DNA of 64,000 nucleotides from Sphyrna mokarran (lineage: Eukaryota): the NCBI GenBank assembly GCA_024679065.1, contig JAGIQG010000007.1:58032001-58096000 (forward strand). Direction: 5' to 3'. The position numbers and the translations under genes were made by a program. The notes beneath the pieces were generated by a model. That model was not told where the DNA came from and did no database searches. It saw only the letters and a list, made by a program, of their open reading frames with translations. This document shows, piece by piece, positions 411 to 57,267 of the stretch. Each line of letters opens with the position of its first letter. Position 1 is the first letter of the stretch.

Positions 411-2882
411 TGTCAGGATGCTGGATAGAGTGGCGCAGAGGCAGTAAACCCTGTACATACACTCTAGGAGAAGGCTGTCCAGCAAGCTGACCACACTTGT
501 CTGGGATGCAGTGGTGACTCAGCAGTGTCAGAAGAAGATGCATGACCTTCTCTGCTCAGCCAAGGTAAATGAACTACCTCTATCTCCCACTGTACCTCCT
601 CAAATGCCCCTCACAGCCCTAAGCCTTTCTCTCACTCAACCACCTTAGCTTCTGCCAACACCAGACACCAGATTGTCCCTCTCCCTCCCATAATTACTAT
701 GTTCCTCCAGTAACTGCTGTGCTCCTCTCACTCCAGCTCCCACCAAGCCCCACACCTGCCACACGTCATCACTATCTTAAATGTCAGCGCTTCTACCTAC
801 ATTCTCTCTATCTGTGTCATTGCAGGACAAGCCCAACTACAACAGTTATCAGCAAGTGCAGGCAGCTGGAGTCATGCCCAAGTTGAGACCTCTCAAACAC
901 ATTGAGGAGTGAGCCCTCGAACTGGCTGGGGAGGAGGGAGACCATGCCTGCACTCCTGCTGAAGTGGGGAAAAGAGAAATCCTCAACACACACCCTGTCA
1001 TTCCTCAAGTCTCAAGTGAATAATCAATGTTCCTATTATATCCCCTGCATTGATGCCATGTTCTTTCTCTTGCAGGCCGGTCACTGGAACAGGCTGGACC
1101 ATCTCACACCTCCTGGACCAACCAGACTCTAGCAGTTCAGAGGGAACTTTTCCAGCCCCACCACTGAAGTAGTGTCACAGCTGTCACTCACACCCGGCAC
1201 CAGTGGAGAACTCACACCTCAGTGGATTTAATAAGTAGACAGGCTTCTGAGTCACTCACTGCTGAGCATCTCACAGCTGAGCATCTCACAGCTGAGGATC
1301 ACAGTAGGCAGAGGCAGGGATGTCTGAGGGAACTGGCACTTGGAGGGATATTGGAGCCCAGGACACTGCTGAGCCCTTGCCGATGATGTGCCCCTGGGCC
1401 TGGTTGTCCCACAGCTGCTGGAGATGTAAAGGTAGAGTTGCAAGTATCAGGAAGGTTCGATAGCAGCTCTCCTCAAACTCCAAGGTTGATTGGAGGAATT
1501 CCATTGCCATCTATCTGATGGTGCCATCACTGCAGCACACTGAGGCCAACACTGCAAGCTTGACATCCACAATGAGACCTATAGTCATAAACTCCATGGC
1601 AAGAGGTGAACACAACATGGTGCAAAACTTAGACTGCATGCTGCAGGCACTGGTGGGAATCCATGAGTGTTAGAGCAAGAGAATGATGGAGCTTCTGGAT
1701 CTCCATCCAGCTGTCCCTCCATCCCAGGAGGGGACACAGGGGTTCCTGGAACATAAAGGGAAGAGATCAGCAGGAGTACAGCCCACAGTCCCCCAGACTG
1801 GCAACCTTGGGCATCTCTAGTCCATTTGACATTCCATTCCCTTTGAGCAACATGCCTCCAGCCCCTGACACTGAGGGGGGCAGCAGTTCAACATCAGTAC
1901 TGACTGAAAGCAGGCTTGGATCTTCAAGGTCCTGGCTCCCCCAAGGGACACCCACCAAAGTCTCTCAGGCAAAAGGGCATGGAAGTCCACAGGCCACCTC
2001 AATCTCAGCTGTGGATCATAGGGATGGGAGGGTGAGGAACATGAAGAAACCACAGGCAATTAGCAGCCACAGGTGAATATAAGCACTATTGCAGATAGGT
2101 CACCATTTTGCGTTGAATGTTTGGCAATAAATTTCACTTTATTCATCCACAGAGTCTCCACCCTGTCTGTTTGTGCCACCAAACTTGGGGGAACCACCAC
2201 CCTCACCTGGTGCCTCATCCCTGTGGAGTGTGAGAATAGCAGTGCTATGTCTCTCCCATCTTCTAGCCAGCTCCCATGAAGAAAGGGCACTCTGTCAGTT
2301 GTGATATGGACAGGAATCCAGGAAGGCGGACATGGGAAGTATTGCCTGCATACCAGCCTTCACAACTTCTTTAGAGCAAGGGACAAGCCAACATGAAGGG
2401 TAGAGAAGGTATGCAAATGACCATTCCTGATCTCTCTCTCTCTGAAATGGCAATTCTGGGACCCTGGCCCCGGGTTAAGCTGATCTGTGCAACCCAAATC
2501 CTCTCCAGTGCCCCTTAAGCAGTGTACACCGTACAGGGTTATGGCAACCTGGCACTCCACTCTGAAATTCTTCTCGGAGGTGAAGGCACCAGGTTCACCT
2601 TTATGTAAAGCTGTGGTAAATGGCACTGACGTGATATCACGCCAGCATCCGCTGAATATGTGTGATTGAGGGGGGTGGGATATGAAGTCCCAGAGAGAGC
2701 GCTTGCTAATGATGTTAGTATATTAAAATGAGCTTTCTACAGTCCTGTGGCAACCTTCAAGTCACTCCACGGGCAAGAGGTTGGTAAAATCAGGACTCAG
2801 AAACCCGCTGGCACTAATCACACTCTCCGGATTTTGATGATGATCTGATATTCCCGCAGATGTGAGAGATCAAAATTGCCCT
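411..2882 (+). mobile_element. Degenerate Harbinger/PIF DNA transposon carrying a three-exon Myb/SANT-like accessory gene relic
   Basis: Exon-1-like segment reads LDRVAQRQ...WDAVVTQQCQKKMHDLLCSAK then GT donor at 565; acceptor tgcag at 821-825 followed by DKPNYN...LRPLKHIEE*ALELAGE; second acceptor at 1071-1075; TIR-like end aaaattgccc near 2880. In-frame stops present. Confidence 0.7.
1255..1304 (+). repeat. Short tandem duplication, ~15-bp unit x3 (tcacagctgagcatc)
   Basis: Direct reading: tcactgctgagcatc tcacagctgagcatc tcacagctgaggatc. Confidence 0.8.
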
Positions 2883-3739
2883 CTAAGTCTTACAATTTGC
2901 TGAGACAGCACAACTGACAATTGGAAACCTCCGTTTCATGACATCACTGTTTAAATTAATTCAACATTTTGAGCATCCAGGGAGTATCAATGATGTTTCT
3001 ATTATGCAGTAGTCCATGATAGTCTCCAAAGCTCTCTAAATTATAAGGGGATATCAATAATTAGAATAGTTATATTTTGTCAAAACATGTGCACCCAAGT
3101 GAGCACAAGGTGTATATATCAAAAATCTTGGAGACAAAACTGTTTGATTAATTTTAACAGCATACTCAGAATTTACCAATATATGTTCCTGGCAGACGAG
3201 GCTTCTTGCTCGGAACCCACTTTTGTAGAATTGGTCCTACTTTGTATCAACTCAATGCTAATATCCATCGTCTTTCTATTCTAGTTGTTCCCAGTTGTTG
3301 CATGTTGTAGACTGAGTGGAAACTTTAGTTGGACTGCATTGTACTATCCCTTGATATACCTAGACATCCAATTTTGTATTTTAATTTGATCACTGTGGTA
3401 GGTACATTAATCATTGTATACAATACTATGTGAAGACACAATATTAGTTTTCGCAGGTACACTGGTGATACTCAGCTCTGTCTAATGTATTTGTGTACTG
3501 AAGATTAGCTGATACTCCTCAAGCCCTGAGGCATAAAAGTTCAGAGTGGAAATGATTTTGACAGGTCAGCTTGCAGCATTTGACACAACTCTGTTGAAGA
3601 CTCTTTAGAGAATCGTGGTCTTCGTATTTGCTATTTCAGAGAAAAAATAATTAACTGTGACAAAAATAAATTATGTATTTATTGTGCACTTTTGTCCAAG
3701 TTTTGATTTAGTGGCTGTTTCTTCAAAACTTACTCATGG

Positions 3740-4290
3740 TGCTCATAGAATGGTTACAGCACTGAAGGAGGATTTGGCTGACTCTTCAATCCCCCTTCCC
3801 CTGTCCTTCCCTGTAATCCTGCAAATCTATCCCTTCATTGCTTATCCAATTTTCTTTTTAAGTCCTGATTATATTTGCTTTTGCTGCACTCTCAGTAGTG
3901 CAACCCAGATTCATTAACTCACTTTTTGTTATATTGTTATTATTATTTCTTTTGCTAGTCATCTTAAATCAACATCCTCTAGTTCTCTACCTTTCCAATT
4001 TCTCCCTATCTGTTCTACCTAAATCCCTGATGACTTTGAACATTTCTATCAAATCTTCTGTTAACCTTCTGTTCTCTGAGGGGACAACCCTAATTTCTCC
4101 ACTCTATTCTTGTAGCTAAAGTTCCTCAGCCCTGGAAGCATAAATCTGTCAATCCTTTTGGCATCTGTTTAAATGCCTCACATTTTTATGAAAGTACAAT
4201 GTCCAGGATTGGGCAAAATGCTTCAGCAGAGACTGAACTAGATTATTATAAAGGTCCATCATAACTTTCCTGCTTATACACTCTACTATG
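3740..4290 (-). mobile_element. Old degenerate CR1 3' fragment
   Basis: Resembles the reverse complement of the CR1 RT C-terminus and 3' UTR seen elsewhere in the window. Confidence 0.6.
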
Positions 4291-4808
4291 ATAAGGCTCA
4301 GGCGCTTGTGGGGTTAGTGTAGGTGAGTACAGTATCACTCACACAGTGATGTAAGAGAACACATGACACACATTTGGGATTCAGTGTAAGATTGAACATG
4401 TGCTCATGCAAATATGGAGACAGCTCCTAGCTTGAACGATTTATTATATATATGTATATACTTCTTTTAGTTAATAAGTATTTGCTGTTAATCTGCTTAA
4501 AGATACAAAGTCTTCTCAAATGGTTTTCCAGCTCGCTGCACTCATCTTGAGAGAAACTCAATCAAATGGTGGCATTATTATTTGGGGGGGAATGAGAGCG
4601 GGATGAAATTGAACCAAGTACAATTGGATCTGGCCATAGGGGCTGCTAATTGCTGAGGTAGGCTGTTTAAAAGCCCATCTTGCTCACTGGGACTTAGTTA
4701 CTGTTTGTTAAACAATAGGTCCTCTAGCCCTTACTCCTAACACCCATAAGCCCTTAGTCCTTTTGCTCTATATTATTTCATGCCGATTCATGCCTCCATC
4801 AACTCTAT

Positions 4809-9784: not shown

Positions 9785-12700
9785 GAAGGCATAGAAAATG
9801 CAGAGTACAGAATATGGCCCAATATGTCTCTGCTGAATGATAAAGAGCTACCCAGCTCTGTCTTCCTGTACTTGGCCTCTAGCCCTGCAAATAGACACCC
9901 CTGCACTTTTAAAATGTGATGAGAGTTCCTGGCTCTATCACCTTCTCAAGCAAAGAGTTCCAAGTGTCGACCATTCTGGGTGAAAAATATTTTCTCATCT
10001 GCCTTCTAATTCTCCTACCAATTGTACTTAATCTGCACACTTTGTTTTTGATACCTCTTATAAGGTAAATATGTTGCTCTTATTTACTCTCTCTTGACCC
10101 CTAATAATTTTATATACTCTACTAAATTACTTCTCAGCCTTCTCTGCTCGAAGCCCATCTAAACTTTCCTTAAAGCTAACATTTTTCAATCCTGGCAGCA
10201 TCCTCATAAATATCTTCTGCACCTGCCCTAGTGTAGTCACATCTTTCCTGAAATGTGGTGGAGAAACTGCATGTAGCAGTCCAGTTTAGTCCGACTAATC
10301 TCTTGATGAGATTACAGTCACTAGAGAGATGGTGCTTGATAGGCTAACGGGGCGGAGGGCAGGTAAGTCCCCAGGACCAGATGGAATGCATCCCAGGGTC
10401 TTCAAGGAAATGGCAGAGGTGATAGCGGATGTCCTGGTAATTATCTTCCAGAATTCGCTGCACTCCGGGAAAATGCCGGAAGATTGGAAAATGGCTAATA
10501 TTACGCTGCTGTTTAAAAGCTGAACATATTCAGCGAGGAAGCCTCCAGCACCTCATCAGGCAGAGAATTCCGAAGATTCATCACCCTTTGCGTGAAGAAA
10601 CTCCTCCGCAACTCTGATCTTAAAAAAGGTAGCAGACAGAAGGCAGGGAATTATAGGCTGGTTAGTTTAATGTCTGTGGTAGGAAAAATGTTTGAATCTG
10701 TCTTCAAAGCAGAACTAATGAGGCACCTGGATACAAACTGTTTAAACGCAGCACGGATTCGTTAAGGGGAAGTCGTGCTTGACGAATTTATTGGAGTTCT
10801 ATGAGGAAGTGACTAGTGCGGTAGATAGAGGGGAACCAGTGGATGTGGTGTTTTTGGATTTCCAAAAAGCGTTTGATAAGGTGCCTCACAAAAGATTGCT
10901 GCAGAAGGTTAAGGTGCAGGGAGTCGGGGGAAGGGTGTTAGACTGGATAGAGGATTGATTGTCTAATAGGAAGCAGAGGGTAGGTATCAATGGGTGCTAT
11001 TCTGATTGGCAGCTGGTGACTAGTGGAGTATCCCAGGGTTCAGTGCTGGGGCCTCAACTATTTACCATTTATATAGATGATCTGGAGGAAGGGGCTGAGT
11101 GCAGGGTGATGAAATTTGCTGATTGCATGAAGATGAATGGAAAAGCAAATTGCGTAGAGGGTGTGGAAAGCCTGCAGAGGGATCTGGATAGGTTGAGTCA
11201 GTGGGCAAGGACCTGGCAGATGGAATATAATGTTAGCAAGTGTGAGGTTATCCAGTTTTGTAGGAATAATGTAGGAAGGATTACTATTTAAATGGTGAAA
11301 AGTTGCAGCATGCGAAGGTGCAGAGGGATCTGGGGGTCCTTGTGCATGAATCGCAAAAACACAGTATGTAGGTGCAGCAGGTGATTAAGAAGGCAAATGC
11401 AATGTTGGCCTTTATAGCTAGGGGGATAGAATATAAAAGTAGGGAGGTTCTGTTGCAGCTGTACAGGGTGCTGGTGAGGCCGCAGCTGGAGTACTGTGCA
11501 GTTTTGGTCGCCGCATTTGAGGAAGGATATATTGGCCTTGGAGTGGGTGCAGAGAAGGTTCACTAGGCTGATACCGGACATGAGGATGTTGGAATATGAG
11601 GAGAGACTGAATAGGCTAGGTTTGTACTCTTTGGAGTTTAGAAGGCTGAGAGGGGATCTTATAGAGACGTATAAGATAATGAAGGGGATGGATAGGGTAG
11701 AGGTTGAGAGACCCTTCCCGCTTAGCAAAGATAGCAGGACTAGAGGGCACAACCTCAAGATTAGGAGGGGGCCGGGTGCAGTTTAGATCAGAGTTGTGGA
11801 AGAGTTTCTTCACGCAAAGGGTGGTGAATCTTTGGAATTCTCTGCCTGATGAGGTGGTGGAAGCTTCCTCGCTGAATGTGTTCAAGAGTGGATAGGTTCT
11901 TGATTGACAAGGGAATTAAGGGTTACAGGGTGAAAGCGGGAAAGTGGTACTGAACCACTGCAGATCAGCCATGATTTTATTGAATGGCGGAGCCAGCTCG
12001 AGGAGCTGGATGGCCTACTCCTGCTCCTATTTCTGATGTTCTTATGTTTCTTATGTACAGTTCTAGCATAATCTCTCTGCTTTTATATTTTATGCCTCAG
12101 CTAAAGAAGGAAAGCATGCCCTACGCCTCCCTCCTTAAGCACCTTATTGAACTCCTGCTACCATAATGGATTTGTGGACATATACTGCAAGGTCCCTCTG
12201 TTACTCCATATTGCTTGTTATTCTTCTATTTGCTGTGTATTCCTCTGCCTTGTGGCACATCCAAAAATGTATTAGCTGACACTTCAGCAAAATGAATTCC
12301 ATTTTTTTACTTTTCTGCAAAACTGCTCCTACCATCCATAACTTTACTCAATCTCAAGCTTTTCTCCTCACTGTCATTAAGACAGCTGGTTTTTGTTTCA
12401 TCTGCAAACTTCTTTAATGTATCCCTACATTTGATCTAAATTACAAAAAGTAAGAGGCTAAGTACTGAGCCCAGCTGAACCCCACGGGTAACAACTTTCC
12501 AGTTCCAAAAATACTTGTCAATCATTCCTGTTTTTTTCCCTATCTCAAAGCCAGTTTTGGATCCAATTTGCCACTCTCCCATGAACTTCAAGAACTTTTA
12601 CTTTTTTGACCATGTGGGACCTTGTCAAATATCTTGCTAAAATCTGTACAGCGCACATCCATTGTACCTACCCTGATCAACACTACTTGTCACCTCCGCA

Positions 12701-25095: not shown

Positions 25096-25568
25096 AGTTT
25101 TAGGCTGGCCTAGTCTGCTTGGTTGGAGTACATACAGCCTGTGTGCTCAATGTCATGTTTCAGATGAATTTCTACTTCAATGCTTCCTTACAATTACTAT
25201 TTACTTTAAAATCAGTTCATGTGATCCATCATTCCATTATAACGACGAGGTTGAATCTTAAGCACCATAAGAAATTATGCAATCGAATCGAGATCATTAT
25301 GAATCACAACTAAATACTCATTATATAACATTCTCAGCATGTCTCCAACCATTCACAAGCACCAAGTTACTTAATATCATACTTCCCCATGTCAATCATT
25401 GCCCTTTCACCTGTCAATCATTGTACTCAACTCATCCATTCCACCTGCAACATTCCTGGTGTTAAAGTAGAGATGATGTAGAGAAGATGGCGTTGGACTG
25501 GGGTAAACACAGTAAGAAGTCCCACAACACCAGGTTAAAGTCTAAACGGTTTATTTGGTAGCAAAAAC

Positions 25569-25609
25569 CCACTAGCTTTCAGAGAGCTGCTTCTTCCTCA
25601 GGTAAGTGG
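25569..25609 (-). ncRNA. Minimal hammerhead motif in pLTR, weakened stem II
   Basis: Minus strand: ccacttac CTGAGGA agaagcagctctct GAAA gc TA gtgg. Confidence 0.6.
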
Positions 25610-26051
25610 GAGTTCTGTTCACAAACGGGGCATATATAGACACAAACTCAATTTACAAAATAGTGGTTAGAATGTGAGTCTTTACAGGTAATCGAGTCTT
25701 AAAGGTACAGACAATGTGAGTGGAGAGAATGTTAAGCACAGGTTAAAGAGATGTGTATTGTCTCCAGCCAGGACAGTTAGTGAGATTTTGCAAGCTTAGG
25801 CAATTCGTGGAGGTTACAGATAGTGTGACATGAACCCAAGATTCCGTTTGAAGCCGTCCTCGTGTGCGGAATTTGACTATCAGTCTCTGCTCAGCAACTC
25901 TGCATTGTCATCTGTTGTGAAGGGTGCCTTGGAGCATATTAATATTAATATAATCTTATTGATATTAATATCTGTAAAGACTCGCATTCCAACCATTATT
26001 TTGTAAATTAAGTTTGTGTCTTTATATGCCCTGTTTGTGAACAGAACGCTT

Positions 26052-26090
26052 ACTTACCTGGTGAAGGAGCAGCGCTCTGAAAGCTGGGGG
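26052..26090 (+). ncRNA. Decayed minimal hammerhead motif in pLTR
   Basis: tac CTGGTGA aggagcagcgctct GAAA gc TG: A6 and the cleavage-site base are mutated. Confidence 0.5.
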
Positions 26091-43830: not shown

Positions 43831-44289
43831 ACTCACTCCAAACTGTATTCCTGAATCCACTCAGAAACATATACCAACTGAGATCAAAGTGTGTATGCTG
43901 GTGAAGGATGCAGGGGAATGATGTGACAATAGTCCTCTGATAGCCTCTGTTCTTCTTCAGTGGTGGATAAATGGTCCACCAAGATGGCAGCCCTCTGTTC
44001 CTGTTGTTGATCTGTGAGGGAAAACAGAACGAAGGGTGCTTCTCACTCCAGGCACTGAATCTGCTGCAGTTCACATCTGTCTATAAGTTGGGGGATTCAT
44101 TTGCTTTATTCCAAGAGGATGCAAGACTTGGGGTTTTCACACTTTCACCATGAAGTAAGTCAAGGTTTATTTGTTTAAGTGGAGTGTTCACCTCTTTGTG
44201 ATCCTGGGGAAGAGGACCTCTCACCTTGCCCAAGTAGCTTAGAGGAGAACATGCACAGAATCACCATTGAGCCTTGGGGTTTTTAGGTT

Positions 44290-45049
44290 TTTGGATCAGA
44301 GGTTATTGCAAATGCTACTCAAAATATGCTAACACTGAACAGAATGAATTAGATATTGTTTTACTTAAGACTTTGAAAAATTCTTCAAGCACTGTATGCA
44401 TTTTCTTTAACAGCAACTCTATCAGAAGATACAGGTATCTTTCCCATGCATTCCAATCACACTAAATACCCAACAATGGACATTATTCCCTTTTATGCAC
44501 ACCAGGGTTGAGATTCCTGGGACTAATTGGGAGAGAAATTGAGCCTTGAGTTTCTCTTCTTGCCAAGTTATTTTCTGCTGTAGTTTCTGAGGAGGATGGT
44601 GGGGTCCATTTAAACAAGGCATCAACATTTACTTTCACATCAAGCAATGGCACAGCTGCTACCTCAATCCTCACCTCTGACCACCAGGTGGTCAGTCAAA
44701 CTGCCTGTCAACCAGCCATCAATGAGTCAACTGGTCTGATATCACTCAGGAAACTGGAGTCAGAGTGGCTGGGCCTTTTTAATCTGCTTTCAGTTCTGCC
44801 TTTTCTCTCCCAATGGGTTCCAGAAATCCCAACTCTGGTGTGTATAAAAGGGAATAGTATCCATTGTTAGGTATTTGGTATGATTGGAATGCATGGGAAA
44901 GGTACTTGTATCTTCCGATAGAGTTGCTGTTAAGGAAAATACACACAGTGGTTGGAGAATTTTCCAAAGTCTTAAATAAAACAATATCTAACTCATCCGC
45001 TCAGTGTTAGCACATTTTGAGCAGCATTTGCAATAACCTCTGATCCAAA
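44290..45049. repeat. Long inverted repeat: ~250-bp arms (44290-44538, 44802-45049), 263-bp spacer
   Basis: Manual alignment of the arms gives about 85-90% identity, mostly transitions. Confidence 0.9.
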
Positions 45050-45517
45050 CACCAAACTCCAGATCTGTTTCATTGTGTCTGAATGCCAAGAGTACCAAAT
45101 GAATACCTCTGGAAATAAAACAGTCAGTGTCTCAGAGAGGAACATCTTTCAGTTCTTCCATAAGCCTTTTTCCAGACACTGCTTCCAGACTTCTCCTTCG
45201 GAGCAGCAGAAAATTCCTTAAAAGATCACTTGAATGGCCACCGTGCTGTATATCAGCTTCAGTGGCAGGGCCTGCAATTTATACCATGTCATGCTGGTTT
45301 TGTAAGACAACCCAGCTTCAGAGCACAGTTCCCAGATGAAAAATAAAACCCTACCACATTGCGGGAATTTAATGCTGTGAAATGTGCACCCAATTGGCTG
45401 ACACAGAATTAGCATCTGTCAGACTTTTTGTCCCCTCATCTTTGGAATTCCTTTTGATGTTTTCTGGAAGTTAGACAGAGAACCAATTGTGATGAACAAG
45501 CTGATCCTTCTGCATTT

Positions 45518-47548
45518 GGTCTCAAATTCCTTTCCTCGACATTATAAGTCAGAACTATCAAAAATCGGAATGAGGTGGCGGGTAGGGGGAGAGGATATTC
45601 CCCCAGAAGCACCAGCGTCAGGCGACATGTCAATTTCAAGACAGCAATCCTGGCACCAGCAATAATCATCGGGGCAGCGGAAAGTCAGGACAGGAATCCT
45701 GCTTTCCTCCCACTTGAGACCAGTTAAACTTGTCAAAAAAGTTAACTTAGAACTTCTTGGCAGGGTCAGTGGAATATTCAAAGGAAAAATGGCTTTCAGG
45801 AGTTGTCGGTTTTTGAACAGCTGGGGGCAGACAATAGGGAATCTGTCACATCTGTCATCTGCATTACCCTGACTCCATAAACAAAGATAGTGTTGCAAAG
45901 GAGGAATGAGGACTTGGTAAGCGGGTGCTTTTAATACTACGCAGGTGGCAGAAAGAGTTGGTGCTCAGTGCTCAGGCTTTGAACTCAATTAGCACCTGGT
46001 ACTGTGGGGTGGTAGAAAAGCAGGGGCTAATGATGCCAAACACAACTGGGTGGTCACCTGCCTATCTCCAGTGATGATAAAGGGCAAAAGTTTTCCTAAG
46101 AAGTGTCAAAACCCAGGTATGAGGAGTGCCTGTTGGAAGACAAAAGGCAAGGCACCAAGGCCAAACATAAGATCTATGACCAAACACAAAACTATCTGGA
46201 CATGAACGAGAACCAGTGCAGGAGACTCTGCAACTCTCCAGGCTGATGGCGACAGAGATGTGTTCCCTCATTGCTTACACAATATAACATTGAGTACCAT
46301 CCTTGCTCTGCCCACCAAAGTCACTATGCTCTTGAGCTTCTTCATGTGGGTCTCTTTCCAGTCATCAGTTGCAGACTTTAGTTGCACAGCATCTTGCTAG
46401 TCACTGACAATCTCTTTTCCATGAGCTGGACAGCATGTTTATTCAACAACCAACATGGGCTCGCAGGCACTGAGGGCATAGGGTTCAACTGCTATCACTG
46501 GAGTTCCACAGATGCAAGCATTGCCAATTGCACCAATATAGCCATTAAAACACTCATGACCAGCCAGTGATTCCATTCAATTCCATGTTCAACAACTCTC
46601 TCCATGCGTGCATTCGCTTTCAGGTGTCCATTTTTTCAGGAATCATCCCCACCTCCATTCCTGCTTTCCTGATTCCTTCATCATTCACCAATTTAGGCTG
46701 TCTCTGATATTCACTCCAACCAGTAAAGAGTGTGAATGGAACTTCGGTGATAAGACATCCTTGAAAACATGGCTAATTATCCCTTTCAGGGAAACACAGA
46801 CAGAAGCACAGAGGAGATGAAACCAATGTCACCTGCTTGCCAGGACAATCATTGAACAGGCCTTTTGTCTTCTGAAGATGCCACTCCAGTGTCTGGACAG
46901 GTCTCCTAAAAGAGTCTGAGTCATGAAAGGGAATAGTGTCCATTATTGGGTATTTAGTATGATTGGAATGAATGGGAAAGGTACCTGTATCTTCTGATAG
47001 AGTTGCTGTGGTGGTCTGCTGTGCTCTGTACAATATGGTACACCAGAGAGGTGTGAACTCGAGAGCTGTGAAATCCTGGAAGGTGGTGGAGGAGGACATG
47101 AAAAAGAAAGAGGAATTGAGGTGGGCCAAGATGAGGCTAAACATAGCAGTGTCCTTGTTGCAAAATAAGGTGGTCACCTCTTGCCACTCTGTAGCAAGAC
47201 CCTCTCCTTCATTGCTTCCAGCATTAGATCCAGGATAGCATCAATGAAGTGATGTTTTGGCTCCAGTGTGACATCTCATCTCCCCCAGTGAAGGGCAAAG
47301 CTTTGACACAAACCACAGACCCCTCCCGTAGGACAAACAGTAGCCTCTGTGATTACTGCTGGATGAAGTCCAAATCAGTCCCATGCTTCATCTCTCCCAC
47401 CTCTGTTCACACCCACAAAAGTTCTAACTGGAAAGGATGCCATAACAATGAATGGCTAACCTCTGTGAAAATCTGAATTTCAGTCAATTTAAGGCAGATT
47501 TCGGACCCAAAAACCTGTTTCCAATCTTTATGGTTAAAATTCAGTCCA
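45518..47548 (+). mobile_element. Degenerate Harbinger transposon with HARBI1-like DDE transposase pseudogene (~46150-47150)
   Basis: DSFII...W.FGDK...TWLIIPFR, QRR*NQCH..ARTIIEQAF.LLKM...CLDRS and VVVCCALYNM..QRG followed by an acidic tail; TIR-like ends ggtctcaaattc / aaaattcagtcc. Confidence 0.75.
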
Positions 47549-47964: not shown

Positions 47965-50130
47965 GGCACATAACCTGTTTGCCTGGCGGATGCTGAAAAT
48001 GCAAATCAGAGCCCTAAACATGGGTATCAACAGCACATTTTCTGGGTTACATTCAGTCTGTGATCATCCAGAGACTGGAAAATCTGGGTCAATATTTTAG
48101 GAATTGACTTTCTCTCCTGTTGATTATTTTATTGATATTTGCTAGTAGAAATGCATAATGCATAATTGTTTGAGATTCCAAAATTGAATTGGAGGTGTGT
48201 TTAGAGGTTAAACAGAAACTATAATTACTGGTTATTTGATTATCCCTAAACAGACAAACATCACTCCTGTTTAGTCAGGATTGTGATGGGATTTATAAAA
48301 CCTTTATAATTTAGAACACAGTTTGAATTTTTGTACTTGCAACAAATCCCAACTTTTTCCACAGGGGATGCTTTATGTAATTAAGAGGAAATTCACTGGC
48401 TGCGAAAACATTATAAATGACTACAATTGTTGATGTTGTAACTCAGATTTCAAATGACCCTTGAACTTATTGAATGAGTAGTTCAAAGCACACTAAATGC
48501 TTGATAATTATCTCTGTGTCTGAGTGCTTGCGCTTTAGATTCAGATATTTTATTAGTCTCTGAACTTTACTTCTTATTTTTTATTAAACTTGCTCTGCCT
48601 CCAGATGGGACAAGTACCAAATGCTAAAATGAAATACAAGGCCTTATTCTTCAGCTAAAACCTTTCCAAAAATTTCCTTGAGCAAGAAGTTTTAGTTTCT
48701 GTTTTACTGGAACATGCTGAGCAGTTTTTTTGTAACTTAATCATGGGAAATTAGAAAGAAGTTAAATACAGAATTTAGTGCATCATCTTTTGTGTAATTT
48801 TCCATTTTCCCTTTTCATGTTTATATTGATATATTCCTCACCATCGGACAATAGGCAAGACAGACAGGGATAAAACTGAAAAGGAAGAAAGTTAATGCCA
48901 TATAACTCAGCATTATTAGGTTGAGGTTCGAGTAATAAATTGTTTAAGCTTCCAGTCCACATTATAGATTCTTAAACTGTCTTTGAACACAGACAAAGAT
49001 AAAAGAACATCACAATTCTGTCTCTTGCTGTTCTACTGAATCAGTGACACTTCATGGCTGTTGTTGCTTTGCAGTTAATAATATTTAACAGCCACACACC
49101 TTCATTTTGACAGGAGAGAAATAGATTCTAGATGAAAATCATTATATCAGTGAAATGACTTGAAAAAGATTCACAAATAAAGTGGCACCAATCAGCATTG
49201 ACTGGTAATTATGAAGCAAGCTGTGGGGAAGGCTGGTACAGAAAGTTGAAATAAGTAATGCTAAGATAAGTTACATTGTGAGATATAAGAACATCTTTTC
49301 TCTATTTGCATTAAGCTATACCTGAAATAAATGATGCTAATGATTATAAAGAACTGAGGAAAATTATTTAGCCATACTGTCATGAATACAAAATGTACTC
49401 CAGAGGCAGGAAAATTTAAATAGGGGGTCAATGAGACCTAATGGTTTTATTTCTATCAAGCCACATTCAACTTTTCATAGCAGGATAACCATGAAATTTG
49501 ATGCAGTTTTACAATCGGCAAGACCAAGAGTGCAACAAGTGTTGATATAAATGAGCTTTCGCTGTTCAGCAGCCTTTTGTTAAAGTTATGGGTTAGATTT
49601 TTACACTGGTGCAAATTGCATACTTAAGTTTTTATTCCATTCTTAAAGTTACAAAGCCAATGCTCAGGACAAACCCAAATCCATTTTTCGCTTGTTCCAA
49701 AAACCAAGTTCATAATCCAATTCAAGGTCCCCACAAAGGAGACAAACAAGATTCAAGCTGACAAAATAAGGCATTGCACCCCACCTTGAGCTTGATCTGA
49801 TGCTTAAAAGGAAGATGTAAATGTATAATATGTATTGAGTATATGTTTAGCCCACATTTCATGATTTAATTCTGAGGTAATTAATCTAGTCATTGCCTGT
49901 TAAAGGAATCCGTTACCATGGCATCCCCTAAAATGTATGCATTAATTAACACAAAATAAAGAACCAATTTTCATTCCTATGTCAAATCAAAGTTTTTTTA
50001 AAAAATTATTTGTGGGATATGGGTGTTCCTGGCTATGATGTAGAGATGCCGGCATTGGACTGGGGTAGTAAGAACTCAGTAAGAATCTAGCAACATCAAT
50101 TTTAAATCCAACCAATTTATTTGATAGTAA

Positions 50131-50169
50131 ATTTGCGAGCTTTCGACTTTCTGTCTTCATCAGGCAAAT
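50131..50169 (-). ncRNA. Minimal type I hammerhead ribozyme, intact catalytic core
   Basis: Minus strand: ATTTGC CTGATGA a GAC agaaa GTC GAAA gc TC GCAAAT = 6-bp stem I, CUGANGA, stem II, GAAA, palindromic AGCU stem III, UC cleavage site. Confidence 0.85.
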
Positions 50170-50383
50170 GCAGTATTCTGGTCTGCAATAGCACACATAT
50201 CAACACAGACAGTCACAGATTGCTGATTAGAATGCGAATCCTTACATCTAACCTGCTATTCAAGTGTTAAAGTGGCTAACAATGTGTGTGAAGGGAATCC
50301 TGAGCATTGGTTAGAGAATTGTGTATTTTCTCCAGACAGCACAGTAAGTGAGGTTTTTTGCTAACCCAGGCAAGTTACGGGGG

Positions 50384-52093
50384 TTACAGATAGTGTGTCA
50401 TGAAGCCAAGATCCCTATTAAGACCGTCCTCATGTGTGTGGAACTTGGCTATCAGTCTCTGCTCAGTGACTCTGCGCTGTTGTGTGTCACGAAGGCCCCC
50501 TTGAAGAACATTTACCCGCAGGTCGGAGGCCGAATGCCCGTGACTGCTGAAGTGTTCGCTCACAGGAAGGGAACTGTTTTGCCTGGTGATTGTTGAGCGA
50601 TGCTCATTCACCTGCTGTCGTTGTGTCTGCATGGTCTCCCCAATGTACCATGCTTCGGGACATCCTTTCTTGCAATGTATTAGGTAGACAATGTTGGCCG
50701 AGTTGCAAGAGTACTGGTGAATGGTATCCTCACGTTTGATGATGTCGTCCATGTCTATGATCTGACATGTCTTGCAGAGGTTGCTGTGGCAGGGTTGTGT
50801 GGTATTGTGGTCTCTGTTCTCCTGAAGGTTGGGTAGTTTGCTGTGAACAATGATCTGTTTGAGGTTGTGCGGTTGTCTGAAAGCAAGAAGTGGGGGGGTG
50901 GGGATGGCCCTAGCGAGATGTTCATCGTCATCAATGATATGTTGAAGACTCCGGAGAAGATGTCGTAGCTTCTCCGCTCCGGGGAAGTACTGGACAACAA
51001 AGGGTACTCTGTCCACCGTGTCCCGTGTTCGTCTTCTGAGGAGGTCAGTGCGGTTTATCGCTGTGGCACGTCGGAACTGTCGATCAATGAGTCGAGCGCC
51101 ATATCCTGTTCTCACGAGGGCATCCTTCAGTGTCTGGAGGTGTCTGTCACGATCCTCCTCATCTGAGCAAATTCTGTGTATACGGAGGGCTTGTCCATAG
51201 GGAATGGCTTCTTTAACGTGTCTAGGGTGGAAGCTGGAGAAGTGGAGCATTGTGAGGTTGTCTGTCAGTTTGCGGTACAGTGAGGTGCTGAGGTGACCAT
51301 CCTTGATGGAGATGCGTGTGTCCAAGAATGCAACTGATTCTGGAGAATAGTCCATGGTGAGTCTGATGGTGGGATGGAACTTGTTGATATCATCATACAG
51401 TTGTTTCAATGATTGTTCACCATGAGTCCAAAGGAAAAAGATGTCATCAATGTATCTAGTATATAACTTTGGTTGAAGATCTCGTGTGGTGAAGAAGTCT
51501 TGTTCGAACCTGTGCATGAAGATGTTGGCATACTGAGGTGCGAATTTGGTCCCCATGGCTGTTCCGTGTGTCTGGATGAAAAGCTGATTGTTGAAGGTGA
51601 AGACATTGTGGTCCAAGATGAAGCGGATGAGTTGTAAAATTGCATCCGGAAACTGGCAGTTGTTGGCATTGAGTACTGAGGCAGTTGCAGCAATACCATC
51701 GTCGTGGGGGATGTTGGTGTAGAGCGCCGAGACATCCATTGTGGCAAGGAGTGTCCCTGGTTCAACTGCTCCATGTGTGCTGAGTTTCTGTAGGAAGTCC
51801 GTAGTGTCAAGACAAAAGCTGGGGGTTCTTTGTACAATGGGTTTCAGGATGCCCTCGATATAGCCGGAGAGGTTCTCACACAGGGTCCCATTGCCTGATA
51901 CGATGGGACGGCCGGGTATGTTTGCCTTGTGTATCTTTGGGAGGCAGTAGAGATCTCCAATGCGGGGAGTACGTGGAATGAGAGCCCAGAGGGTGTTCTG
52001 AAGGTCCAGATCAAAGGTTTTGATCAGAGTGTTGAGTTGACGAGTGTGTTCTTCTCTCGTCAACTCTAATGAGTTGAGAAGAACTTCTCTCAT
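50384..52093 (-). CDS. PLE reverse transcriptase plus GIY-YIG endonuclease, open 569-aa frame lacking the native N-terminus
   Basis: LPKIHK, GRPIVS, DVSALYTNIP, GTAMG, RYIDDIF, Cys linker PCHSNLCKTC, IVYLIHC...WYIGET and E...N; its ATG lies inside the repair patch, so expression is doubtful. Confidence 0.8.
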   Translation of the reverse strand: MREVLLNSLELTREEHTRQLNTLIKTFDLDLQNTLWALIPRTPRIGDLYCLPKIHKANIPGRPIVSGNGTLCENLSGYIEGILKPIVQRTPSFCLDTTDFLQKLSTHGAVEPGTLLATMDVSALYTNIPHDDGIAATASVLNANNCQFPDAILQLIRFILDHNVFTFNNQLFIQTHGTAMGTKFAPQYANIFMHRFEQDFFTTRDLQPKLYTRYIDDIFFLWTHGEQSLKQLYDDINKFHPTIRLTMDYSPESVAFLDTRISIKDGHLSTSLYRKLTDNLTMLHFSSFHPRHVKEAIPYGQALRIHRICSDEEDRDRHLQTLKDALVRTGYGARLIDRQFRRATAINRTDLLRRRTRDTVDRVPFVVQYFPGAEKLRHLLRSLQHIIDDDEHLARAIPTPPLLAFRQPHNLKQIIVHSKLPNLQENRDHNTTQPCHSNLCKTCQIIDMDDIIKREDTIHQYSCNSANIVYLIHCKKGCPEAWYIGETMQTQRQQVNEHRSTITRQNSSLPVSEHFSSHGHSASDLRVNVLQGGLRDTQQRRVTEQRLIAKFHTHEDGLNRDLGFMTHYL

Positions 52094-52834
52094 TCTTCTC
52101 TCTAATCTGCTGGTAACTGTCTGTAGTGTTTCTCATTGTTTAGTTGTTGGTACACTTCTTCACAGTAGTCCATTCTGTTCAGTATGATGGTGGCGCCTCC
52201 TTTGTCTGCTGGTTTGATGACAATGTTGCGGTTGGTCTTGAGAGCACAGATGGCCTTGCTTTGTGCTTGGGTGATGTTCAGGACTGTCTTGTAAGTGCGG
52301 TTGATGAATCTGGTGTTCACGCACCTCCTGATGGCTTGGGCATACATGTCCAGTCGGGGGCAGCGGCCTTCCGGAGGAGTCCAATTGGATTCATTCCTCT
52401 TTGGTTGCTGCACTGCGGATCCCTCTGTCGGCTGTTCTGGTTCATTAGCTGTCTCATTGAGTCCACTATTGGCCTCTTGGGGTTTGTGGAAGAACTCATG
52501 CAGCCTCATTTGCCTGATGAATTCCTCTGTGTCCGCTGATGGGGTCCATTTTGGTGGTGGAACAGAAATTGAGCCCTCAGCCAAGAACTTCGATTTCCTC
52601 TGATTGAAGTGTGTAGTCCGACAAGTTAACAATGGATCTCCCTGCGGTAGTGCTGTTTTCTACTGTGGTGCCAAGGGAGGCTTGGTTGTTGCTGGTGGCG
52701 ATGCCGAGTTTTTCAAGATTCCTGTTCTTGGTGTGCATGTAAATGGTGTAGTTTCTTCGTCTCATCTACTTGGCAAAGTTTCGCAGCTGATCTGCGTTCT
52801 GAGTGCAAGTTGCTATTGCAGACCAGAACACTGC

Positions 52835-52873
52835 ATTTGCCTGACAAAGACATAAAGTCGAAAGCTCGCAAAT
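52835..52873 (+). ncRNA. Minimal hammerhead motif, G8 to A mutant (probably inactive)
   Basis: ATTTGC CTGACAA a GAC ataaa GTC GAAA gc TC GCAAAT. Confidence 0.75.
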
Positions 52874-52967
52874 TTACTATCAAATAAATTGGTTGGATTT
52901 AAAATTGGTGTTGCTAGATTCTTACTGAGTTCTTACTACCCCAGTCCAACGCCGGCATCTCTATATC

Positions 52968-55638
52968 ATGACTACTATCGACACCGCATACTGCCGGATC
53001 CAAGTGGAGAGGATCTCTGAGAGAATTGCACATATCGACACAGACATCAAGTTTCTACAGAGATGCAAGAAAGCAGACAGGATACCAAAGGGACTACAGA
53101 TCACGAACCCACTCAGGTCAACCTATAACACAGACTACGTTGAGAGGCTTTGCCGTCGCACCTCTCTCACACTCCTCAATCACCTCATACACCAGCTCTA
53201 TAGCAAACGCCGCACCCTGGAAAGTAAAATGGAATACATATACTCAACTTGCGCTCAGGACGCAGATCAGCTGCGAAACTTTGCCAAGTAGATGAGACAA
53301 AGAAACTACACCATTTACATGCACACCAAGAACAGGAAACTTGAAAAACTCGGCATTGCCACCAGCAACAACCAAGCCTCCCATTGCACCACAGTAGAAA
53401 ACAACACTACCGCAGGGAGGTATATTGTTAACTTTTCGGACTACACACTTCAATCAGAGGAAATCGAAGTTCTCGGCCGAGGGCTCAATTTCTGTCCCAC
53501 CACCAAAATGGACCCCATCAGTCCTGCAGCAGACACAGAGGAATTCATCAGGCAAATGAGGCTGCATGAGTTCTTCCACAAACCCCAAGAGGCCGATAGC
53601 GAACTCAATGAGACAGCTATTGAACCAGAACAGCCGACAGAGGGATCCGCAGTGCAGCAACCGAAGAGGAATGAATCCAATTGGACTCCTCCAGAAGGCC
53701 GCTGCCCCCGACTGGACATGTATGCCCAAGCCATCAGGAGGTGTGTGAACACCAGATTCATCAACCGCACTTACAAGACAGTCCCGAACATCACCCAAGC
53801 ACAAAGCAAGGCCATCCGTGCTCTCAAGACCAACCGCAACATTGTCATCAAACCAGCAGACAAAGGAGGCGCCACCGTCATACTGAACAGAACGGACTAC
53901 TGTGAAGAAGTGTACCGACAACTAAACAATGTGAGACACTACAGACAGTTACCAGCAGATCCAACCAAAGAACACACTCGTCAACTCAACACTCTGATCA
54001 AAACCTTTGATCTGGACCTTCAGAACACCCTCTGGGCTCTCATTCCACGTACTCCCCACATTGGAGATCTCTACTGCCTCCCAAAGATACACAAGGAAAA
54101 CATACCCGGCCGTCCCATCGTATCGGGCAATGGGACCCTGTGTGAGAACCTCTCCGGCTATATCGAGGGCATCCTGAAACCTATTGTACAAAGAACCCCC
54201 AGCTTTTGTCTTGACACTACGGACTTCCTACAGAAACCCAGCACACATGGAGCAGTTGAACCAGGGACACTCCTTGCCACAATGGATGTCTCAGCGCTCT
54301 ACACCAACATCCCCCACGAAGATGGTACTGCTGCAACTGCCTCAGTACTCAATGCCAACAACTGCCAGTTTCCGGATGCAATTTTACAACTCATCCGCTT
54401 CATCTTGGACCACAATGTCTTCACCTTCATCAATCAGCTTTTCATCCAGACACACAGAACAGTCATGGGGACCAAATTCTCACCTCAGTACGCCAACATC
54501 TTCATGCACAGGTTCGAACAAGACTTCTTCACCACACGAGATCTTCAACCAAAGTTATATACTAGATACATTGATGACATCTTTTTCCTTTGGACTCATG
54601 GTGAACAATCATTGAAACAACTGTATGATGATATCAACAAGTTCCATCCCACCATCAGACTCACCATGGACTATTCTCCAGAATCAGTTGCATTCTTGGA
54701 CACACGCATCTCCATCAAGGACGGTCACCTCAGCACCTCACTGTACCGCAAACCAACAGACAACCTCACAATGCTCCACTTCTCCAGCTTCCACCCTAGA
54801 CACGTTAAAGAAGCCATTCCCTATGGACAAGCCCTCCGTATACACAGAATTTGCTCAGATGAGGAGGATCGTGACAGACACCTCCAGACGCTGAAGGATG
54901 CCCTCGTGAGAACAGGATATGGCGCTCGACTCATCGATCGACAGTTCCAACGTGCCACAGCGATAAACCGCACTGACCTCCTCAGAAGACGAACACGGGA
55001 CACGGTGGACAGAGTACCCTTTGTTGTCCAGTACTTCCCCGGAGCGGAGAAGCTACGACATCTTCTCCGGAGTCTTCAACATATCATTGATGACGATGAA
55101 CATCTCGCTAGGGCCATCCCCACCCCCCCACTTCTTGCTTTCAGACAACCGCACAACCTCAAACAGATCATTGTTCGCAGCAAACTACCCAACCTTCAGG
55201 AGAACAGAGACCACAATACCACACAACCCTGCCACAGCAACCTCTGCAAGACATGCCAGATCATAGACATGGACGACATCATCAAACGTGAGGATACCAT
55301 TCACCAGTTACTCTTGCAACTCGGCCAACGTTGTCTACCTAATACATTGCAAGAAAGGATGTCCCGAAGCATGGTACATTGGGGAGACCATGCAGACACA
55401 ACGACAGCAGGTGAATGAGCATCGCTCAACAATCACCAGGCAAAACAGTTCCCTTCCTGTGAGCGAACACTTCAGCAGTCACGGGCATTCGGCCTCCGAC
55501 CTGCGGGTAAATGTTCTTCAAGGGGGCCTTCGTGACACACAACAGCGCAGAGTCGCTGAGCAGAGACTGATAGCCAAGTTCCGCACACATGAGGACGGTC
55601 TTAATAGGGATCTTGGCTTCATGACACACTATCTGTAA
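52968..55638 (+). pseudogene. PLE RT-GIY-YIG polyprotein, interrupted by an in-frame TAG (53289-53291) and a 1-nt frameshift near 55308
   Basis: ORFs 52968-53291, 53292-55418 and 55288-55638 are consecutive pieces; KPADKGG, RYIDD and VVYLIHC/YIGET motifs. Confidence 0.92.
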
Positions 55639-55852
55639 CCCCCGTAACTTGCCTGGGTTAGCAAAAAACCTCACTTACTGTGCTGTCTGGAGAAAATACA
55701 CAATTCTCTAACCAATGCTCAGGATTCCCTTCACACACATTGTTAGCCACTTTAACACTTGAATAGCAGGTTAGATGTAAGGATTCGCATTCTAATCAGC
55801 AATCTGTGACTGTCTGTGTTGATATGTGTGCTATTGCAGACCAGAACACTGC

Positions 55853-55891
55853 ATTTGCCTGACGAAGACAGAAAATCAAAAGCTTGCAAAT
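55853..55891 (+). ncRNA. Minimal hammerhead motif, G12 to A mutant with broken stem II (probably inactive)
   Basis: ATTTGC CTGACGA a GAC agaaa ATC AAAA gc TT GCAAAT. Confidence 0.7.
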
Positions 55892-57267
55892 TTACTATCA
55901 AATAAATTGGTTGGATTTAAAATTGGTGTTCCTGGCTAGCCAGTATTATTTCTCATCCTGAGTTGCCTTTGTTCAGAAGGCAGTTGAAAGTTAACCACAT
56001 TATTAGTGGTTCAGGAGTCACATGCCGGCCAGACCAGATAAGGATGTCCGATTTTCTTCCCTAAAGGACATTAGTAAACTGATGGGTTTTTCTGATAATC
56101 AACAATGGTCTCATAGTCATCAGCAGATTCTTAATTCCAGATTTTTTTTATTGAATTCAAATTCCACCATCTGACATGATGGGATTTGGTCACCAGGCAT
56201 TAGCTAAGTTTCTGAATTAATACTCTAGCAATAATACCACTAGTCCATCATCTCCCTCCTGATGATTATTTAAACCTATTGATAAGATTGTGTATAATAT
56301 TCTGGCACCTCAGATTGTTTTGCAGAGATATTAAAGTTGTTGAATTGCCAGTTGTTATCCTGATTGGCCTATTTTATTTATTTGGGTGGTATTTGTGTTT
56401 TGCATGTATAGACCTCCTCCAGGCAGAACTCTCAGCACTGCGAGGAAGCTTTACAACCATAGACATGTGGACATGTTAAATATTCTTTTTGTTTGTTTTT
56501 CTAAGTTCAGAATCATATAATTGCTATTTACTCCTCTGGCACCCACCAGAAATTCAGGGTACAGTAATTACCACTAATTTGCATTTTTACATGTTCTTAA
56601 ACATCAAATATTGTATCCAACATATTTATGATTTATTGGAATAGAACGTGGAAATTAAAACATTAATTAAGTTCAAAATTGTGGAAAAGGTCTTGCTTTG
56701 GTAAACCAGGCTGCTATTGTTCTGTTTTTGATACTTTAATTTTCTCAGATTCACTTTGGGTGTACATTTCAGTTGCTGGATTCCAAATTCATTCAATAAA
56801 ATAATTGGGATATACTTAATAATAGCCAGAGAAGAACACAGACTTTTTCTATTATGCATGGCATATACATATGATCTTTATGTTTAAATCCATGCCATAG
56901 TGAAGATCGCCAATCAAATTATGTGATTTTTGGTAAATGTGCATATTTATGTTCGTTTTTATTGAGAGGTAAAGTTGAGGTACAAAAGGGCAAATAAGGT
57001 ATTAAGCATGTCAACCATTTTTATGTGCTGATAACATATGTTGTGAAATTATATCAAATAATTTAAAGTTCAACTTGAAACTCCAACCATATTAACGTCT
57101 GATGGACGTGGCACATTGGATGAAAATAACATTAAGCAAATTTACTTATGTTACTTATTTGAAACAAGGTTGGACTAGCAAGGGGATTGCATTTCCTCAC
57201 TCTATGTAGTGTATTACTGGCGCATTATGTTGTGTAAGAGGAAGAATTGGGATAGGCATAGTATCAG

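Follow-up and report, generated by a model that had tools for sequence, protein, structure and literature searches.

How does a retroelement come to lie in a genome as two multi-kilobase copies, head-to-head, inside a single target site duplication (TSD)? This question is raised by a Penelope-like element (PLE) in a 64,000-nt stretch of contig JAGIQG010000007.1 of the shark Sphyrna mokarran. The whole stretch is referred to here as the window, positions are positions in it unless given for another locus, and numbers prefixed with L denote other loci of the family fetched from the genome. The evidence indicates that the locus is likely the product of one insertion of an endonuclease-positive (EN+) PLE, during which both nicked target strands primed reverse transcription at neighbouring start sites, with RNA derived from one source copy.

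The inverted arms of about 2.7 kb that had been proposed from inspection of the sequence (the original prediction) were borne out: 50089-52812 on the minus strand is the reverse complement of 53245-55933 on the plus strand. Aligned to each other over 2680 bases, the arms showed 2618 matches, 62 substitutions (2.3%) and 5 gaps; 50 of the substitutions are transitions and 34 lie in a CpG context. The protein common to both arms shows 15 amino acid differences over 554 residues. The unit and its target consist of the following parts, where pLTR stands for pseudo-long terminal repeat and SINE for short interspersed nuclear element:

50022..50035, no strand: TSD, left copy, 14 bp
50036..52812, minus strand: left arm, 5'-truncated, with the long, tail-bearing outer end (pLTR position 158)
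50036..50091, minus strand: one-sided tail, pLTR positions 103-158, missing from the 3' end of the right arm
52053..52104, minus strand: about 44 nt private to the left arm (alignment gaps of 27, 1 and 16 nt)
52811..52812, no strand: head-to-head junction with a 2-nt TG overlap, unique in the genome
52811..52968, plus strand: 5' pLTR of the right copy, ending at the first ATG (pLTR position 158)
52811..55930, plus strand: right arm, a full-length copy with the short outer end (pLTR position 96)
55829-55933, plus strand: 3' pLTR of the right copy
55925..55938, no strand: TSD, right copy, 14 bp
55939..56260, minus strand: older host interspersed repeat, SINE-like, with its A-rich end left of the insertion at about 49990-50021

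The predicted 14-bp TSD around the unit was confirmed: GGTGTTCCTGGCTA occurs in the window only at 50022 and 55925, and the repeat cannot be extended either way. The claim of two near-full-length copies held for the right copy, which is complete between direct pLTRs (52811-52915 and 55829-55933, 94% identical). The left copy lacks its first 434 bp and bears a tail that had been overlooked: it continues to 50036, about 55 nt past the end of the right arm, so that its outer 3' end lies at pLTR position 158. The right copy ends outward at pLTR position 96 and overlaps the TSD by a further 6 nt. The supposed 432-bp spacer belongs to the right copy as its 5' part, pLTR included, and this pLTR is also repeated inversely at 50035-50193.

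Paralogues of the repeat on the right flank were used to reconstruct the target. All 11 that were fetched run into left-flank-like sequence with the equivalent of the TSD present once, the left-side matches being short (scores 25-50). As these paralogues continue across the site, the target was one older repeat, represented by 55939-56260 (about 80% identical to paralogues; 6971 first-look candidates). The earlier statement that the flanks rejoin was therefore correct, while their identity as a SINE is plausible from an A-box-like motif seen by eye and lacks library confirmation; Rfam and ARAGORN gave nothing useful for this label. The single TSD and the rejoined host repeat support a single insertion event, as had been proposed. 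We regard it as very unlikely that two independent insertions hit one site or that a single copy was later duplicated in inverted form at the DNA level. Both kinds of event occur in this family of thousands of candidates, as an apparent double insertion at L102 and a probable inverted duplication at L038, but at the window locus one TSD surrounds both arms, the flank is unduplicated and the ends are unequal. Moreover, no other copy in the genome matches either arm as well as its partner does (99%, against at most 97%), and none of 13 overlapping segments was closer.

Long inverted repeats are a known assembly trap, and no read or contig bridging the central junction was seen under a 31-base rule (runs X1 and X7). 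A fold-back produced during assembly is nevertheless hardly credible: the arms differ at the 62 sites and 5 gaps given above with the CpG-transition pattern of ageing, and neither the asymmetric tail nor the TSD nor the rebuilt host repeat is expected from such an artefact. The locus is present in one read run only, X1 (share 0.94; possibly the assembly's own sample), whose contigs match letter for letter at both outer junction regions (49723-50059 and 55905-55991), although on the element side these matches do not extend to the 31 bases required. An orthologous empty site was not found; the other 23 read runs have a share of 0.19 or less.

The unit has the traits of described PLE insertions, namely an adjacent inverted 5'-truncated copy, a one-sided tail and a TSD. 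The canonical EN+ PLE unit, drawn in Fig. 2 of Craig et al. 2021 (PMC8557442) and known as the same insertion unit from Pen2a_Av of Adineta vaga, likewise has its open reading frame (ORF) between direct pLTRs, a head-to-head inverted 5'-truncated copy, a tail on one end only and a single TSD around the whole. According to the report on Pen2a_Av, the head-to-head arrangement is the most frequent one, and antisense self-priming was proposed as its origin (PMC3846280). In the canonical unit the inverted part is pLTR-sized, whereas at the window locus it measures 2.8 kb; the tails there differ by about 55 nt (the norm of the shark family being about 37 nt), and a palindrome at the junction is lacking. 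The origin of tandem and inverted PLE structures has been called undefined (PMC8557442), and a family of thousands of candidate copies constrains this question.

A census of this family, which comprises 2120-4297 first-look candidates in the genome, was based on about 10 kb fetched around each of 114 other loci from three top-40 lists, obtained with a mid-reverse transcriptase (RT) query (39 loci), a 3'-end query of the same subfamily (38) and a 3'-end query of a younger subfamily (37). An outward-facing inverted arm was present at 67 of the 114 loci (23/39, 24/38 and 20/37, respectively). The search for inverted pairs within one TSD that the original prediction had suggested thus yielded many pairs, with TSDs mostly of 11-15 bp. 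An automated test for a repeat of at least 9 bp detected a TSD in 43 of 48 units, the window included, with a mode of 12-14 bp; its call at L038 is spurious, and it missed L041, which has a 15-bp TSD. Young units carry an exact TSD of 11-14 bp in 16 of 20 cases. The window locus is an ordinary, if large, example of the layout described in PMC3846280 and PMC8557442, and its presumed exceptional status was not supported.

Its inverted arm had also been called unusually long. The overlap of 2.7 kb is indeed the longest seen in the census, at the upper end of a continuum that includes second arms, paired with long partners, of 2.4 kb (L069), 2.35 kb (L066) and about 2.0 kb (L031, L056 and L068). 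As 3 of 74 tabulated arms in the 3'-selected samples reach 2.6 kb, two arms of at least 2.6 kb together would be rare (about 0.2% if independent) but require no special mechanism. Both arms are near or above 1.6 kb in about 14 of 24 units of the mid-RT-selected sample, against 0 of 37 in the 3'-end-selected samples (Spearman -0.10); the former signal is treated as a possible selection bias, and no coupling of arm lengths is claimed.

The strongest regularity of the family concerns the outer ends, which fall into two classes: long ends, with pLTR positions of 151-163 grouped around the first ATG (158), and short ends, mostly at 111-126. Among 43 TSD-anchored units, 42 combine one long with one short end; over all samples, a hand tally gave 65 of 67 pairs (P 1.5e-17 against 0.5). 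The null of 0.5 follows from the even split among 47 loci without an outward inverted arm, of which 23 end long, 23 end short and 1 is interrupted. Both exceptions look like other kinds of event. L038 (5113-7687, oriented), with two long, identical ends and a flank duplicated in inverted form, looks like an assembly error or like a copy that was later duplicated in inverted orientation at the DNA level. At L102 both ends are short, the arms are separated by 1.9 kb of other DNA, and no TSD is present. The rule also holds at 25461-26161 of the window, where a small head-to-head unit from a related but older PLE family has a 12-bp TSD (GTTAAAGTAGAG) and a tail on the left arm only. No published pairing rule or twin-priming model for PLEs was found in a search that left subscription papers and supplements largely outside its scope. 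That the long start site falls on the ORF's first ATG (52968-52970) may be coincidence.

These ends suggest that priming was internal, at two pLTR positions about 37 nt apart, and the idea that each complementary DNA (cDNA) was primed near an RNA 3' end was not supported. With complex units omitted, the tail-bearing arm is the one that reaches further 5' in 15 of 35 units; in the other 20 it is the short-end arm. This observation bears on fold-back or self-priming, by which one cDNA, or an antisense RNA template, would fold back and be copied into the inverted arm, as proposed for head-to-head PLE units of rotifers (PMC3846280). Fold-back would directly explain why partner arms have subfamily and rare variants in common; however, a copy of the first cDNA cannot exceed it at either end. 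In the window unit and in the 20 of 35, the tail arm has extra 3' sequence and the other arm extra 5' sequence; since each arm thus contains sequence that the other lacks, fold-back of a sense cDNA is contradicted there, and since either arm can reach further 5', priming from both nicks is supported. Junctions which differ at every locus, being overlapping, blunt or extended by extra nucleotides, speak against it as well. The 65/67 pairing together with the two-way length asymmetry argues against fold-back, which we judge unlikely overall; this evidence concerns the sense-cDNA version and does not address the antisense-template version directly. That each target 3'-OH primed its own cDNA, as originally suggested, is most likely in view of the TSDs of the family, the end rule, the ability of either arm to reach further 5' and the extension of both strands observed in vitro (PMC11167929).

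The central junctions were compared among 28 units with simple joins: 11 show an overlap of 1-4 nt, 12 contain between 1 and 28 additional nucleotides, and the remaining 5 are blunt, a spectrum resembling host end-joining. Against this spectrum the TG overlap at 52811-52812 is unremarkable; it is real, as had been noted, and uninformative, because it lies within chance for a single junction (P of at least 2 nt about 0.16, hand estimate). The 26-mer across the window junction occurs once genome-wide with up to 1 mismatch allowed, and junction coordinates differ among all units listed. Both facts oppose a pre-existing palindromic source locus that was transcribed and retrotransposed as a whole. 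Such a source would explain in one step the 11 rare substitutions and the deletion common to the window arms, but it leaves the fixed ends at two sites on both sides unexplained, and we give it very little credence. Internal inverted fragments starting at neither pLTR site were seen at L031, L040, L086, L094, L115, L125 and L150, pointing to extra template switches at the 5' junction.

Did both cDNAs derive from the same source? Partner arms have 1.0 rare variants per kb in common, compared to 0.046 for non-partners, and at the coarsest cut they fall into the same subfamily cluster in 20 of 22 units (5.7 expected). The window arms have 11 rare substitutions and one deletion in common, a premature stop included. 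The RNA template therefore probably came from one source locus. Whether both reverse transcriptions ran on one RNA molecule or on two from that locus is a closer question, the former being somewhat favoured and the latter a serious contender.

Several observations weigh against a common source or a common molecule. At the finest cut, cluster concordance drops to 11 of 22 units (0.9 expected). The TSD-flanked unit L047 (2261-6858) has arms in different subfamily clusters and is a candidate for priming on two RNAs or for later recombination. Rare variants common to partner arms rise with subfamily age, from 0.25 to 1.73 per kb in the older subfamily, and because of this rise and of the uneven divergence of the window arms, the common variants may stem from later arm-to-arm gene conversion instead of a common template. 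Coincident 5' ends are weakly enriched (4/37 against 1.35 expected, P 0.044); together with the uncorrelated arm lengths (n = 37) they do not prove the use of one RNA molecule. The census lists are ranked search hits and not random draws, and their frequencies are estimates. The ordered scheme below would need strand displacement by the RT of this family, which is an assumption. Finally, no difference in start site between the two strands was seen in vitro for a lizard PLE (PMC11167929); pairing was outside that study.

The uneven divergence at the window locus amounts to 48/1307 (3.7%) in the inner half of the arms and 16/1336 (1.2%) in the outer half (P 4e-5) at similar CpG content, and gene conversion between the arms is a possible cause. 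Contrary to simple conversion, the common rare variants are not enriched in the outer half. The common stop and the common deletion, the latter in the endonuclease region, suggest that a dead source copy was mobilised in trans, or that conversion occurred later. The deletion was considered as a marker of the source lineage and rejected: the three other loci matching its pattern are diverged copies, L120 and L122 with none of the rare sites of the window and L121 only 71% identical, and their deletions are hence independent. Multi-kilobase palindromes of this kind may be natural substrates for arm-to-arm gene conversion.

For the preferred reading, priming from both nicked strands, the following course can be envisaged. 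The endonuclease would nick the two strands about 12-14 nt apart (14 at the window locus). One 3'-OH would start cDNA synthesis at the upstream site in the 3' pLTR (around position 120, but near 100 at the window locus, where 6 nt matching the target would have shifted it) and the other at the downstream site (around 158); each arm would thus have begun, at its outer end, as antisense cDNA synthesised from a target 3'-OH. At the window locus a cDNA of about 3.1 kb would have traversed the 5' pLTR and passed the expected hammerhead cut site, and its counterpart would have stopped after about 2.8 kb. Host end-joining could then join the two cDNA 3' ends and fill the second strands, and loss of either cDNA would give single-armed copies.

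Tentatively, and with somewhat less than even confidence, we propose that the two primings were ordered on one RNA molecule, the upstream site being used first, from the first nick, and the downstream site second, from the other nick, with the trailing RT displacing the first cDNA. The strict pairing of ends finds its simplest account in this order, since a first cDNA at the upstream site would hide that site and leave only the downstream site free for the second primer; if the RNA molecule were the same, its downstream stretch would not yet be double-stranded, and displacement of the first cDNA by the second RT would follow. The main alternative to a single molecule would be an asymmetric dimer holding two RNAs from one locus. 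If the ordered scheme is true, one twin-priming reaction accounts for the tail and the inverted arm as well as for single-armed copies being split evenly between the two ends, and the window locus is a near-complete product in which both cDNAs survived almost at full length. It had been predicted that single-armed copies hide a tiny inverted piece from the other start site, and this was not borne out: among 16 loci examined only L048 has one, and L053 is complex.

In L1 twin priming, both target 3'-OH groups prime cDNA, and an inverted product joined by microhomology results within one TSD. The L1 pieces do not overlap, as the second primer lands far upstream. The window locus is unlike such products: its two starts lie within about 40-60 nt, its arms overlap for kilobases (2.7 kb), and neither arm ends in poly(A). 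The PLE unit works like twin priming and is not an L1-type product.

PAc (PMC11167929; Frangieh et al. 2024), a Poseidon element from the lizard Anolis carolinensis, can also be compared. In vitro, its protein, for which a dimer is predicted, nicks both strands and extends them, and two adjacent internal start sites delimit its tail. As in the shark family, two internal RT start sites bound the tail and both strands are usable as primers; as at the putative site of the window locus, cDNA runs beyond the hammerhead cut site. The differences are that the shark family has the CX5CxxC linker (Neptune/Nematis), that one of its start sites coincides with the first ATG and the other precedes it by about 37 nt whereas the main site of PAc lies 111-118 nt into the ORF, and that its ends overlap the target by 0-8 nt (mostly 1-3) whereas initiation without homology was reported for PAc. 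The main text consulted does not report that both sites are paired in a single insertion. For the in vitro system our reading predicts that the two strands of one target use different start sites.

The coding and ribozyme-like features of the unit are as follows:

50132..50168, minus strand: minimal hammerhead-like motif in the left arm pLTR, by eye
50384..52132, minus strand: open 582-amino-acid frame for RT and a putative GIY-YIG-type endonuclease at the C-terminus, with CX5CxxC linker motif
52836-52872, plus strand: hammerhead-like motif with decayed core in the 5' pLTR of the right copy
52968..55638, plus strand: ORF of the right copy, broken

Two lesions interrupt the ORF of the right copy, an in-frame stop (53289-53291) and, near 55308, a deletion that shifts the frame; each has its counterpart in the left arm, and the ORF is broken in both copies. 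Pfam matches to RVT_1 were obtained (E 8.6e-10 and 1.2e-8), and the PLE-type RT motifs GLNF, IKPADKGG, LATMDVSALY and RYIDD are present, DKG being a motif named in the literature. The C-terminus reads CNSANIVYLIHC...YIGET and is GIY-YIG-like by eye; Atlas look-alikes reach a score of 0.96 and carry GIY-YIG on only 13-18% of members. Pfam gave no GIY-YIG match for the endonuclease region at E up to 1, a strict two-cysteine (CCHH) pattern between GIY and YIG had no match, and a PDB sequence search returned nothing useful. The linker between RT and endonuclease reads CHSNLCKTC (CX5CxxC) in both arms, which agrees with the CX2-5CxxC motif assigned to Neptune/Nematis and not to Poseidon (PMC8557442).

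At pLTR positions 26-62 a hammerhead-like motif with a CUGAUGA...GAAA core and a palindromic AGCU helix III was recognised by eye, and it fits the minimal hammerhead described in PMC4209133. Rfam showed no hammerhead match at E up to 5, and the pLTR fold was no better than that of shuffled sequence (z 0.71). The right copy extends 57 nt upstream of the expected cut site; as it reaches past this site, the template was uncut there or re-ligated. Several 5' ends lie between about -18 and +25 of the pLTR start (window 52811; L048, L062, L088, L095, L107, L112, L141 and L154); these ends, located upstream of the cut site, may coincide with the 5' end of the RNA or with a small hairpin acting as a strong stop. 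Pseudo-LTRs arising from a partial tandem structure were also found at L044, L052, L053 and L069.

The window contains further inverted repeats. At 44283-45056, arms of 256 bp (88%) are separated by 263 bp and do not match this PLE family; a third partial copy lies at 46922-47009. Other inverted pairs occur at 31075-36403 (550 bp, 71%) and 10521-11884 (103 bp, 92%), and a PLE-related fragment was located at 36408-36886.

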